A DNA stretch of 44,640 nt from an uncultured Candidatus Saccharibacteria bacterium (GTDB lineage Bacteria > Patescibacteriota > Minisyncoccia > Sungbacterales > HO2-52-23). The translations under genes were made by a program, and so were the position numbers. Below are positions 42,280-44,640 of this stretch, piece after piece. Below the pieces are notes generated by a model. It did no database searches, was not told the DNA's origin, and saw only the letters and a list, made by a program, of their open reading frames with translations. The stretch is from contig CAYJWH010000002.1 in NCBI GenBank assembly GCA_964373875.1, positions 1-44,640 of the forward strand, written 5' to 3'. Every line of letters begins with the position of its first letter. Within the stretch, counting starts at the first letter, position 1.

Positions 42280-42543
42280 TTAATCAGGCTTATTGGAATC
42301 AAACTTACAATTAGTCCTAACCGCTATATTGATCCGGGCCATAACTCTAGCAATGATCTCGCGCGTCAGGCCTGGCATCATTTCATCTGAAACTGTAACG
42401 GTGACATCAGTCGCCGCAAGGGCGGCACGCAATACTTCATCAAGCTTTACTGCCACCCTCCAATCATCTGCAGTAAGATCCGGATAAAGATGTTTAGCCA
42501 ACATTTCAGGATCTAGGTGAGTCAATTTGATCGCATAGTCCAT
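42280..42543 (-). CDS. Hypothetical 87-aa protein
   Basis: ORF followed by a terminator. I recognise no family. Confidence 0.5.
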   Translation of the reverse strand: MDYAIKLTHLDPEMLAKHLYPDLTADDWRVAVKLDEVLRAALAATDVTVTVSDEMMPGLTREIIARVMARINIAVRTNCKFDSNKPD

Positions 42544-42584: not shown

Positions 42585-43571
42585 ATGAATAAAAAGCAAA
42601 CACTTTTAAGCGGAATTGCTCCCTCGGGCAATCTGCATATCGGTAACTATTTAGGGGCGCTCAAACAATGGGTGGATCTCCAAAAAGACTACACGGTTTT
42701 TGCCATGGTTGCCGATTTGCACGCGATTACCGTTCCCCAAGATCCCAAAATACTCCATGAAAAAACACTCGAAGTCGCAAAGATTATGGTGGCCGGCGGC
42801 ATTGACCCTGAAAAATCAGTTGTCTTTTTGCAATCGCATGTTCCGGCCCACGTCGAACTTGGCTGGATTTTGAATACGCTCACTCCGGTTGGAGAATTAG
42901 AGCGGATGACACAATTTAAAGAGAAAAAAGAAAAATCCGGAGTTCTCGCCGGCCTATTGAACTATCCTTGGCTTATGGCCGCAGATATTCTTCTATACCA
43001 AGCTGATGTGGTACCCGTAGGAGACGACCAAAACCAGCACCTTGAACTAGCTCGCACGCTGGCAAGAAAATTCAATAACAAGTTTGGTGGAAATACTTTT
43101 AAGGAACCTCAAGCATTTATAGATAATGACATCAGGAGAATCATGGCCCTTGATGACCCCTCTCAAAAGATGTCAAAATCAGCAGAAAGTAATTACAACT
43201 ACATTGCTATCCTCGATCCGGAGGAGGAAATTCGTAAAAAAATAAAAGCAGCTGTGACAAGTTCAGAACCGGGAATCAGATTTAATGCCCTAACCCATCC
43301 TGCTGAGTTGAACCTTCTAAACATTTACAGCTCATTTTCCGGAATTCCGACAAACGAGTTAACACAAATGTTTTCTGCCAAAGGGCACGCAGAATTTAAA
43401 GAGTCACTCGCCGAACTGATTGTGGAAAAGCTCAAGCCAATTCAGGATAAATATAAGGAGATATCTGAAGGCAAAATTGAGGATATTTTAAAGGACGGGG
43501 CAAAGCGAGCATCGGAAATGGCCGAAAAAACCCTCCGAGATACCAAAGAAAAAATGGGATTTGTACTATAA
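42585..43571 (+). CDS. trpS: Tryptophanyl-tRNA synthetase
   Basis: 328 aa with SGI.PSG.LHIGNYLGA (HIGH motif), GDDQ.QH.EL.R, and KMSKS. Confidence 0.96.
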   Translation: MNKKQTLLSGIAPSGNLHIGNYLGALKQWVDLQKDYTVFAMVADLHAITVPQDPKILHEKTLEVAKIMVAGGIDPEKSVVFLQSHVPAHVELGWILNTLTPVGELERMTQFKEKKEKSGVLAGLLNYPWLMAADILLYQADVVPVGDDQNQHLELARTLARKFNNKFGGNTFKEPQAFIDNDIRRIMALDDPSQKMSKSAESNYNYIAILDPEEEIRKKIKAAVTSSEPGIRFNALTHPAELNLLNIYSSFSGIPTNELTQMFSAKGHAEFKESLAELIVEKLKPIQDKYKEISEGKIEDILKDGAKRASEMAEKTLRDTKEKMGFVL

Positions 43572-43604
43572 ACTAAAAATCGGCTCGTGAGCCGATTTTT
43601 AGTT
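43571..43604. terminator. Bidirectional 15-bp terminator between trpS and the 71-aa ORF
   Basis: AACTAAAAATCGGCT-CGTG-AGCCGATTTTTAGTT. Confidence 0.75.
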
Positions 43605-43814
43605 TTCTTTGTAGGGATTTTCTTTCTTTTCTTCAAAATCCCCGTCCGAAGAGGAGTCAAAGGGTTTTTGTGTTACCGCAAAACTACTACGCGTTTCATC
43701 CGGCAAACCCGGCGGAGGAATATTTTTATTACGGCCGATATAAAATCTCCTGATTCCATAACCTAAAAGCGTAGGAGCAAATATTGAAATTGTGATAATA
43801 AGAAAGTCCTGCAT
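43599..43814 (-). CDS. Hypothetical small membrane-anchored protein downstream of the Hint-domain gene
   Basis: 71 aa with one N-terminal TM helix and an acidic tail. It begins 10 nt after the Hint ORF stop. Confidence 0.5.
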   Translation of the reverse strand: MQDFLIITISIFAPTLLGYGIRRFYIGRNKNIPPPGLPDETRSSFAVTQKPFDSSSDGDFEEKKENPYKEN

Positions 43815-43824
43815 AAAGGTTGAG

Positions 43825-44640
43825 TTATTCTGTATGGATTAAAATTCCATTGGCAAAATAGTTTTCTGTCTCCGTGCGTATCGTATAAAGCAATTTGGTG
43901 GAGCTCCGCACGCTGACTTTAACGACAACTTTCTCCTTGAGCATACCATCGCTACCAAGAAACAGAATATCTCCGGGAAGAATATTCTCGGCCCTTTTCC
44001 ATCCCTGTGGAGTAAGCAGGCGATGATCTCCGGTCATTTCAAGTTCCGTATCCAATGTCGCGATTACAAATAGTGGCGGATGGTCATTTTGATCATGGCG
44101 CAGAACTTCTAAAACAGGTACTTTGCGAATTTGTTTTTCTTTCAAAGAATATCCTAATACCATGTCCCCTGTCTTAATTTCTTCAATTGTCTTTGTTGAG
44201 CCGTCCGCAAGCAATATTTGAGTTCCCTCAACTACGCAAAAACCGCCACCACCATCACCAGGTGCACCCCCATCACCTTCGCCGGCACCTGTTCCGCCCG
44301 TACCTGCACCCCCGCCAGCGTCTGCTCCTCCACCCGGGCCTGATCCTTCACTGCCACTAGTATCGCTACTTTCGCCAGTAGGAGATGAACCTGGCGCTCC
44401 TCCCTCTCCCTCTGCGGCGGCGGCGGCATTACCGGCAGCAACTCCCGCTGCTGCGGCGGCAGCAGAGGCTGCAGCTGCAGCAGCGTCGGCATTACCAGAG
44501 GCTGCTGCATCAGCGGCTGCAGCAGCGGCGGCGGCTGCGTCAGCTGCGGCAGTAGCTGCAGCAGCGGCTGCATCGGTATTACCAGAGGCCGCAGCTGCTG
44601 TTGCCGAGGCCGCAGCTGCTGTTGCCGAGGCCGCAGCTGC
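43825..44640 (-). CDS. Partial CDS (N-terminus off-window): Ala/Gly low-complexity region followed by a C-terminal Hint (intein-like) domain
   Basis: The frame of ORF 43825-44214 stays open to the window edge. The Hint domain starts at Cys 44238-44236 (GGGGF/CVVEGTQILLADGSTKTIEEI). TGDH (TxxH) is present, and the protein ends NGILIHTE*. Confidence 0.8.
   Translation of the reverse strand, partial: AAAASATAAAASATAAAASGNTDAAAAAATAAADAAAAAAAAADAAASGNADAAAAAASAAAAAAGVAAGNAAAAAEGEGGAPGSSPTGESSDTSGSEGSGPGGGADAGGGAGTGGTGAGEGDGGAPGDGGGGFCVVEGTQILLADGSTKTIEEIKTGDMVLGYSLKEKQIRKVPVLEVLRHDQNDHPPLFVIATLDTELEMTGDHRLLTPQGWKRAENILPGDILFLGSDGMLKEKVVVKVSVRSSTKLLYTIRTETENYFANGILIHTE
44401..44640. repeat. GC-rich tandem/degenerate coding repeats (GCNGCN runs; 21-nt unit GCCGAGGCCGCAGCTGCTGTT)
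   Basis: The unit at 44603-44623 repeats at 44624 onward, with a near copy at 44582-44602. GG(C/T)ATTACC(A/G)G recurs at about 44426, 44488 and 44575. It encodes poly-Ala punctuated by S/T/D/GN. Confidence 0.85.

Follow-up and report, generated by a model that had tools for sequence, protein, structure and literature searches.

A truncated and mis-annotated gene of a Sungbacteria-like bacterium ends in an intein-like Hint domain predicted to be specialised for N-terminal cleavage

At one edge of a 44,640-nucleotide stretch of DNA from contig CAYJWH010000002.1 (the window, by which is meant the whole stretch analysed), the minus strand from 43825 to 44640 carries the 3′ part of a protein-coding gene, 271 codons and a TAA stop, whose 5′ end lies beyond the window and contig edge. 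Three parts follow one another in the product: an Ala-rich segment, a Gly/Ser/Glu-rich linker and, as the last thing before the stop codon, a 137-residue Hint (Hedgehog/intein) domain. The gene is real, truncated and mis-annotated, and the domain with which it ends is intein-like and, judged by the residues kept and lost, specialised for N-terminal cleavage only. From the end of the linker the fragment reads GDGGGGF directly followed by CVVEGTQILLADGS, with EMTGDHRLL further on and NYFANGILIHTE at the C-terminus. Coordinates below are window positions, and all features of the gene are on the minus strand.

The reading frame is not settled by openness alone. Translation from the window edge meets no stop before codon 272, and the first ATG, GTG or TTG in the Ala/Gly frame is codon 143 (TTG at 44214). 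A second frame is likewise stop-free from the edge to 44232, which is how a 113-amino-acid open reading frame (ORF) came to be listed at 44232-44573; DNA rich in GCN and GGN has no stop codons, so an open frame is weak evidence here. A codon log-odds score with out-of-frame codons as background did not discriminate between frames in the low-complexity part, and the frame was assigned by G+C content at third codon positions (GC3) in its place. In the low-complexity part the Ala/Gly frame has a GC3 of 0.34 and the other two frames have 0.82 and 0.86, against 0.45 +/- 0.04 (range 0.34-0.53) in 18 housekeeping genes of the window, and since its value of 0.82 falls outside that range the 113-amino-acid ORF is a wrong-frame artefact. 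Two other results fix the same frame. Hint homology and the strands of the structural model begin 8 residues upstream of the TTG codon, at Cys135, and in relatives poly-Gly or poly-Pro stands directly before the equivalent Cys. An assembly frameshift is excluded by an independent Logan assembly from another sequencing run (L001), which is base-identical over 1115 nt, up to window position 44614. The high local G+C content, 0.63-0.69 against about 0.45 for the window as a whole, is due to the GCN and GGN codons and not to foreign DNA.

The deposited annotation is therefore wrong. The NCBI product of the locus is a protein of 129 amino acids that begins at the TTG at 44212..44214, which is the internal Leu143, within the first beta-strands of the Hint fold. 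A caller barred from partial genes at a contig end must start there, the TTG being the first start codon in frame, and the same mis-annotation can be expected wherever GC-rich low-complexity repeats break assemblies. An earlier note on this DNA had already taken the frame to be without stop or start up to the edge, the 'Met' at 44214 to be an internal Leu, the coding sequence to continue past the window and the 113-amino-acid ORF to be the same DNA in the wrong frame. It had also remarked on a GC-rich, repeat-encoded Ala/Gly linker in an otherwise moderate-GC genome. All of this is borne out, and re-translation matches the translation given there, including GDGGGGF before CVVEGTQILLADGS, the internal TGDH and the final NGILIHTE; an in-frame stop in the repeat region, against which the note had cautioned, does not appear in L001 as far as window position 44614.

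That the C-terminal domain belongs to the Hint superfamily is secure. It extends from Cys135 to Glu271 (43828..44238) and lacks an endonuclease insert. When the last 142 residues were matched to curated models, Pfam Intein_splicing (PF14890), with its gathering score at 35.8, reached 48.7 bits (E = 9e-13) and was covered from position 1 to 154 of 155, and TIGR01445 (intein_Nterm) reached 37.0 bits against a cut-off of 24.5. TIGR01443 (intein_Cterm) stayed just under its cut-off, at 14.0 against 15.6 bits, because the His-Asn of block G is replaced by His-Thr and the protein then ends. Also below threshold were Pfam Hint (PF01079; 23.6 bits against 29.7, with only the N-terminal half of the profile covered), Hint_2 (PF13403; 21.2 against 28.4, only the N-terminal third), PT-HINT (PF07591; 18.2 against 27.7) and Vint. 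Among solved structures the best sequence match, aligned end to end with E = 7e-9, is BIL2 (BIL, bacterial intein-like) from the BUBL1 locus of Tetrahymena thermophila. An AlphaFold2 (AF2) model built on 17 sequences is all-beta, with a predicted local distance difference test score (pLDDT) of 94.7 and a predicted template modelling score of 0.89. Foldseek against the PDB gives it probability 1.00 and template modelling (TM) scores of 0.83-0.87 to BIL2, mini-inteins, the Hedgehog C-terminal domain (Hh-C) and a BIL. The individual scores are 0.86 for both BIL2 (6Y75) and the NpuDnaB mini-intein, 0.85 for the autoprocessing domain of Hedgehog (1AT0), 0.83-0.84 for the splicing domain of Mtu RecA and 0.83 for the BIL of Clostridium thermocellum (2LWY). 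Both checks that the earlier note had suggested for its assignment, a profile search with the last ~135 residues and a structure prediction, thus came out in its favour. By its sequence the domain is nearest to intein and type-A-BIL-like Hints rather than to Hedgehog.

In the numbering of the domain, Cys135 of the fragment is position 1, and conservation was counted over 370 Hint domains taken from the 152 closest cluster representatives, for each column over the domains aligning there. Cys1 (44236..44238), the predicted nucleophile of the N-S acyl shift, aligns to position 1 of inteins and BILs and is kept in 336 of 336 domains. Block B is T-G-D-H at positions 69-72 (Thr203 to His206; 44023..44034), where about 90% of the related domains have the Thr and about 95% the His, and both residues are invariant in two alignments of relatives (A2 and A3). 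Cys1, Thr69 and His72 are spaced as they are in Drosophila Hh-C. The block G-like end, N-G-I-L-I-H-T-E (43828..43851; His135-Thr136-Glu137) followed by the stop, lies in a stretch, NYFANGILIH, that aligns to the C-termini of inteins and of BIL2 as far as the His. Only three of the domains aligned at its column lack that penultimate His, which is invariant in A3. After the His, Asn is replaced by Thr, the stop comes two residues on, and the next ORF lies 10 nt further in a different reading frame, so there is no C-extein. The block A Cys, the reading of TGDH as the T-x-x-H of block B and the His-Thr ending without C-extein had each been noticed earlier from the letters, and each stands. Another residue of relevance is His48 (fragment residue 182; 44085-44087), which aligns with the Zn-binding His48 of BIL2; His is the commonest residue at this position in related terminal domains (30 of 50). 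In an ungapped alignment it lies within two residues of where the general base of Hedgehog, Asp46, would fall.

Cys1 together with the Thr and His of block B suffices for the N-S acyl shift at residue(-1)/Cys1 in the chemistry of inteins, BILs and Hedgehog (PMC4031507, PMC7242414). On that precedent, the folded Hint domain would have Cys135 attack the Phe134-Cys135 peptide bond with help from Thr203 and His206, and the bond would become a thioester (the junction peptide across the predicted site is GGGGFCVVEGTQ). With Asn replaced by Thr, and with neither C-flank nor +1 nucleophile at a chain end, succinimide formation, C-terminal cleavage and splicing are impossible, and the thioester could be resolved only by water or another external nucleophile. 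Non-splicing Hint domains are known to use either hydrolysis or ligation for this (PMC7242414), and BILs yield mainly cleavage products (PMC4031507). Hydrolysis, which would amount to autoproteolytic release of the Ala/Gly-rich polypeptide at Phe134/Cys135 via the thioester, is favoured because nothing after the Hint core could recruit an acceptor, and it is the most likely outcome, put forward with moderate confidence. The helical, Ala-rich part and the flexible Gly-rich tail behind it would thereby be freed from the 15-kDa Hint domain, which would have acted as a single-use, built-in maturation protease. Of the earlier suggestion that N-cleavage chemistry is intact while Asn cyclisation and splicing are lost, the loss is plain from the missing Asn, and the residues for cleavage are indeed kept; cleavage itself is what their conservation leads one to expect.

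Upstream of Cys1, residues 1-76 (44413..44640) are Ala-rich, starting with three copies of AAAASAT and going on to poly-Ala blocks split by SGN[TA]D, and are encoded by tandem repeats with periods of 9-21 nt. Residues 77-134 (44239..44412) form the Gly/Ser/Glu/Thr-rich linker that ends GDGGGGF, its final residue being Phe134, the -1 residue of the predicted scissile bond. An AF2 model of all 271 residues places helices (pLDDT 85-92) at 2-18, 22-47 and 51-78, with the breaks between them at the SGN motifs. The linker, about 55 residues, is predicted to be disordered there (residues 81-131 below pLDDT 50), and the Hint core is the same as in the domain-only model. No hydrophobic segment occurs within the 271-residue fragment. 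A disordered linker before Cys1, found in the window protein and in its relatives alike, speaks for cleavage.

Relatives were sought by an exhaustive phmmer search of 1.84 billion representatives, with 3825 matches. The closest, at 38-47% identity, form a very rare subfamily with the ending H-[T/R]-E, six proteins in a set of 5.8 billion, and profile scans for further members gave only those six and one JGI locus that is the same as one of them (P0012). Two (P0009, of 360 amino acids, and the fragment P0067), at 44-47% identity, end exactly at IHTE, and two others (P0039 and P0012) keep H-[T/R]-E and run 18 residues further. Retention of this ending at 38-47% identity marks it as a stable design and not a recent truncation. 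P0009 starts with a signal-peptide-like segment and has PPPPPPFY directly before its Cys1; P0039 and P0012 start with a transmembrane helix followed by a Gly/Ser-rich linker. More widely, Hint is the last domain (tail of at most 25 residues) in 47 of the 152 closest clusters, most of these ending in His-Asn plus Lys, Ala or Gly, the type A BIL pattern. A Pfam scan of 41 of the 47 left most without an identifiable N-terminal partner, and every partner that could be identified is extracellular: three proteins have the N_methyl motif of type IV pilins, and one or two each have TadE, cadherin-like, Big_9, BspA-LRR, Flg_new, fn3 or dockerin modules. With intact close relatives starting with a signal peptide or transmembrane helix, the product of the window gene is, by analogy, probably a secreted or surface protein.

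Several points weigh against cleavage of an exported protein as just proposed. Position 4 of block F is usually Asp in class 1 inteins; it is Thr in the window domain and Asn in most relatives. The helices predicted for the Ala-rich part are weak evidence, because there is no alignment depth in that region. Further, the N-terminus of the window protein is missing, so that its export and the nature of its cargo are extrapolated from relatives with which it has only the Hint domain in common.

Comparison with known systems shows a domain that seems to work as the Hedgehog (Hog) and BIL autoprocessing modules do and yet lacks what defines each named family, though profile match, HINT fold, and Cys1 with the block B T-x-x-H place it in the superfamily. 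BIL2 of the T. thermophila BUBL1 polyubiquitin locus (6Y75/6TMM), which works via an N-terminal thioester on its upstream domain (PMC8616854), has in common with it size, Cys1, block B His, penultimate His and His48, but identity between them is only about 26% and BIL2, which is eukaryotic, keeps the terminal Asn and has a C-flanking ubiquitin-like domain with an acceptor lysine. Type A BILs such as that of C. thermocellum (2LWY) are likewise bacterial, non-mobile Hints without a +1 nucleophile, and differ in having a C-terminal His-Asn and a C-flank where the window domain has His-Thr-Glu and a stop; its sequence does not match that of 2LWY significantly (E = 0.14). With its Asn to Thr change the window domain falls outside type A, into which the more distant relatives ending HN[KAG] fit, and its block G likeness sets it apart from type B, defined as having no similarity to that block (PMC4031507).

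The likeness to Hedgehog/Hog (1AT0) is one of arrangement, a cargo, a Gly-rich junction and a Cys1-Hint at the C-terminus of a secreted protein, and chemically of the N-S acyl shift step only. There, however, the Hint is followed by a sterol or adduct recognition region of some 60-70 residues, whereas the window protein, from a bacterial host, ends at the last Hint strand. The Hedgehog-like or BIL topology claimed by the earlier note, a terminal Hint behind an upstream polypeptide, holds, with the refinements that the recognition region of Hedgehog is absent and that the domain is nearer to inteins and type A BILs. Mini-inteins (NpuDnaB, the Mtu RecA splicing domain, Spl DnaX) belong to the family whose models score highest, with blocks A, B and most of G recognisable. 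Unlike them, the window domain neither interrupts a host protein nor lies in a replication or repair gene, and it has none of the C-terminal Asn, C-extein and splicing of a canonical class 1 intein. A polymorphic-toxin Hint is not indicated either, as no toxin domain comes after it and PF07591 is under its cut-off. Bacterial secreted proteins with a C-terminal Hint-like domain have been described from Myxococcus, Stigmatella, Photorhabdus, Serratia and Yersinia (by Burglin 2008 and by Dassa and Pietrokovski; PMC2362128), with the same architecture of signal peptide, N-terminal region and terminal Hint-like domain, so the terminal-Hint architecture, noted as early as 2008, is not new. The domains in question, compared here by their description, are highly divergent from inteins, Hog and BILs and have motifs A and B only, whereas the window domain is intein-like throughout.

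A different fate for the thioester would be attack by a specific acceptor in the manner of Hedgehog and BUBL, an amine or hydroxyl of the cell envelope, of another subunit or of a host surface, and the Ala/Gly-rich protein would then become covalently attached through the Phe134 carboxyl without sortase or ATP. BIL2, which among solved relatives is nearest in sequence and in fold alike, moves its upstream ubiquitin-like domain to lysine amines (PMC8616854), and the Hedgehog Hint does likewise with cholesterol (PMC7242414). The shared His48 of the BIL2 Zn site is in keeping with such transfer, as are the pilins and adhesins that are the identifiable partners of related terminal Hints, covalent attachment being biologically sensible for an episymbiotic cell from the candidate phyla radiation (CPR). 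Against this, there is nothing behind the Hint core to recognise an acceptor. In Hedgehog, removal of the sterol recognition region leaves thioester formation in place but abolishes transfer, with only thiol-induced cleavage remaining (PMC7242414). The second Zn ligand of BIL2, His125, corresponds to Thr in the window domain, and no acceptor or partner gene is conserved beside the relatives. Such anchoring is consequently rated as rather unlikely. Its broader version is unlikely as well: that the terminal Hint is by itself a ligase, needing neither ATP nor a sortase, which attaches a surface protein covalently via Phe134 to the envelope, a neighbouring subunit or a host cell, with the His-Thr-Glu subfamily as a stripped-down, transfer-only form in a large undescribed class of terminal Hints on pilin- and adhesin-like proteins.

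The remaining readings are less likely, because the catalytic residues and the His-Thr-Glu-stop ending are conserved across distant relatives. Were the Hint catalytically silent, it would be a folded module at the C-terminus that serves the Ala/Gly-rich protein in binding, oligomerisation or secretion. Loss of the C-terminal catalytic Asn and a block F position 4 that is not Asp would suit this, but the domain keeps Cys1, the Thr and His of block B and the penultimate His, all of them essentially invariant across several hundred related domains, which is not expected of a purely structural module, and conservation extends to a flexible linker that stops exactly at Cys1; the idea is quite unlikely. 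Much more improbable is a decayed intein, with the C-extein lost by nonsense mutation and the locus a pseudogene remnant. It has in its favour that the best Pfam and NCBIfam matches are intein models and that block G is intein-like up to the His. Yet the same His-Thr-Glu-stop is found in P0009 and P0067 at no more than 44-47% identity, the sequence N-terminal to the Hint is low-complexity linker where a conserved host enzyme would be expected, and there is no homing endonuclease; moreover, DnaB and RecA of the genome are intein-free, and a co-oriented ORF and a terminator follow at normal operon spacing. That the existing annotation of two small genes is correct, a Gln/Leu/Pro-rich one of 113 amino acids (44232-44573) and one of 129 from TTG 44214, has practically no chance, for while both ORFs exist mechanically, the crude codon log-odds did not reject the former and the latter is present at NCBI, the GC3 of the first is far beyond the genome's range and the product of the second lacks Cys1 and the first Hint strand.

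Given the superfamily, the chemistry proposed is the expected one. What is notable is a clean 'N-cleavage only' Hint design (an intein-like core, Asn changed to Thr, a His-Thr-Glu end and no recognition region), its CPR host, in which it sits on a probably surface-located protein of an ultrasmall bacterium, and the wider set of terminal Hints on pilin- and adhesin-like surface proteins. No description of that set, of pilin-Hint fusions, of terminal Hints in CPR bacteria or of Hint proteins in YcaO clusters was found in the open-access literature. If terminal Hints cleave, they would be built-in maturation proteases; if they transfer, they would provide a new covalent surface-attachment route in organisms that live attached to other cells. 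From a practical perspective, a minimal, 137-residue N-cleaving Hint without C-terminal side reaction could serve as a protein-engineering tag.

Some of the relatives merit attention in their own right. Four (P0126, P0142, P0019 and P0105) have GFTL[LV]E prepilin leaders and are type IV pilin-like, with a poly-Gly linker and a terminal Hint ending His-Asn-Lys/Ala/Ser; in the Flp/TadE-like proteins P0068, P0131 and P0098 the same linker and terminal Hint endings follow leaders that, by eye, are Flp-like (G/xxxxEY). In P0002, P0003, P0005, P0010, P0013-P0015 and many other proteins, 2-6 Hints stand in tandem with junctions of the form V-H-N-K-G(1-7)-C-F-L; each unit, if active, would cut at both ends.

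The gene for P0012 (L005:6001-6798, in a locus present at L005:4433-9451 and L008:4106-9124, on a 660-kb contig) comes directly after one for a YcaO cyclodehydratase (PF02624, E = 2e-43). The protein has a transmembrane helix, a Gly/Cys/Ser/Thr-rich stretch that recalls a microcin-B17-type core, and the Hint, with its HRE ending plus 15 residues. A gene of the nitroreductase family follows about 2 kb away, and TPR proteins are encoded between. The locus resembles a cluster of azol(in)e type for peptides that are made ribosomally and modified after translation (RiPPs), where the Hint protein could serve as a self-cleaving precursor; if terminal Hints are ligases, the same device might there release or activate a RiPP-like Gly/Cys/Ser-rich peptide.

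P0009 (L007:1990-3072), the sole intact relative that also ends IHTE-stop, has N-terminal motifs of IGTxxPxxxLHV type. It is flagged as PF26696 (PTL_trimer) in precomputed data, a match that a Pfam scan did not reproduce. By analogy with the self-cleaving chaperone domains of tail-spike proteins, it might be a trimeric fibre on which the Hint acts in a similar way. A 1949-amino-acid protein of unknown function on an IMG/VR contig (L009:3988-9837) was set aside as unrelated, being a phage protein with several ordinary endonuclease-bearing inteins.

The window ends in a perfect 21-nt tandem repeat (44585..44640, 2.7 copies encoding AAAASAT, 100% matches in Tandem Repeats Finder). L001 ends within it, and two other Logan contigs (L002 and L003) stop earlier, within the Hint gene; the repeat is the likely reason why the longest assemblies break there. 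Extension of the contig to recover the N-terminal domain, as proposed in the earlier note, did not succeed in Logan, JGI or GTDB. Exact look-up of the 271-residue fragment and of the 129-residue NCBI product returned no contig, the three Logan contigs found through the small ORF downstream of the Hint gene extend no further than the window, and an exact DNA scan of JGI metagenomes gave no match; GTDB species-representative genomes yielded only an unrelated Mycobacterium intein.

That small ORF, on the minus strand at 43599..43814, has its ATG at 43814, 10 nt after the Hint stop, and encodes 71 amino acids, identically in the three Logan contigs. The distance of 10 nt given in the earlier note, which called it a tiny membrane ORF, is correct. 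In the product a single hydrophobic helix at the N-terminus is followed by RRFYIGRNKN and then by an acidic tail. The ORF is an orphan, with no Pfam match and no counterpart beside the Hint relatives. It is probably co-transcribed with the Hint gene and could belong to the Hint system. A terminator scan found a perfect palindromic stem-loop of 16 bp, flanked by runs of A and T, at 43570..43605, between the convergent trpS and 71-amino-acid ORF, the stop codons of both of which it overlaps; it is likely a bidirectional terminator at the end of the Hint transcription unit. Again on the minus strand, between the genes for RNase J and TrpS (42280-42543), is an ORF of 87 amino acids without Pfam match that was called in all three Logan contigs, a small conserved hypothetical.

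The rest of the window, in which there is no other Hint and no Rfam match, is ordinary chromosome, with F-ATPase genes, dnaK/dnaJ, cysS, dnaB, recA, ftsK, rpoB/rpoC, and the genes for RNase J and TrpS. The nearest named relatives of its RecA, at 83-88% identity, all come from metagenome-assembled genomes of Candidatus Sungbacteria / Sungiibacteriota or the 'Parcubacteria group', which makes the host a Sungbacteria-like CPR/Patescibacteria bacterium.

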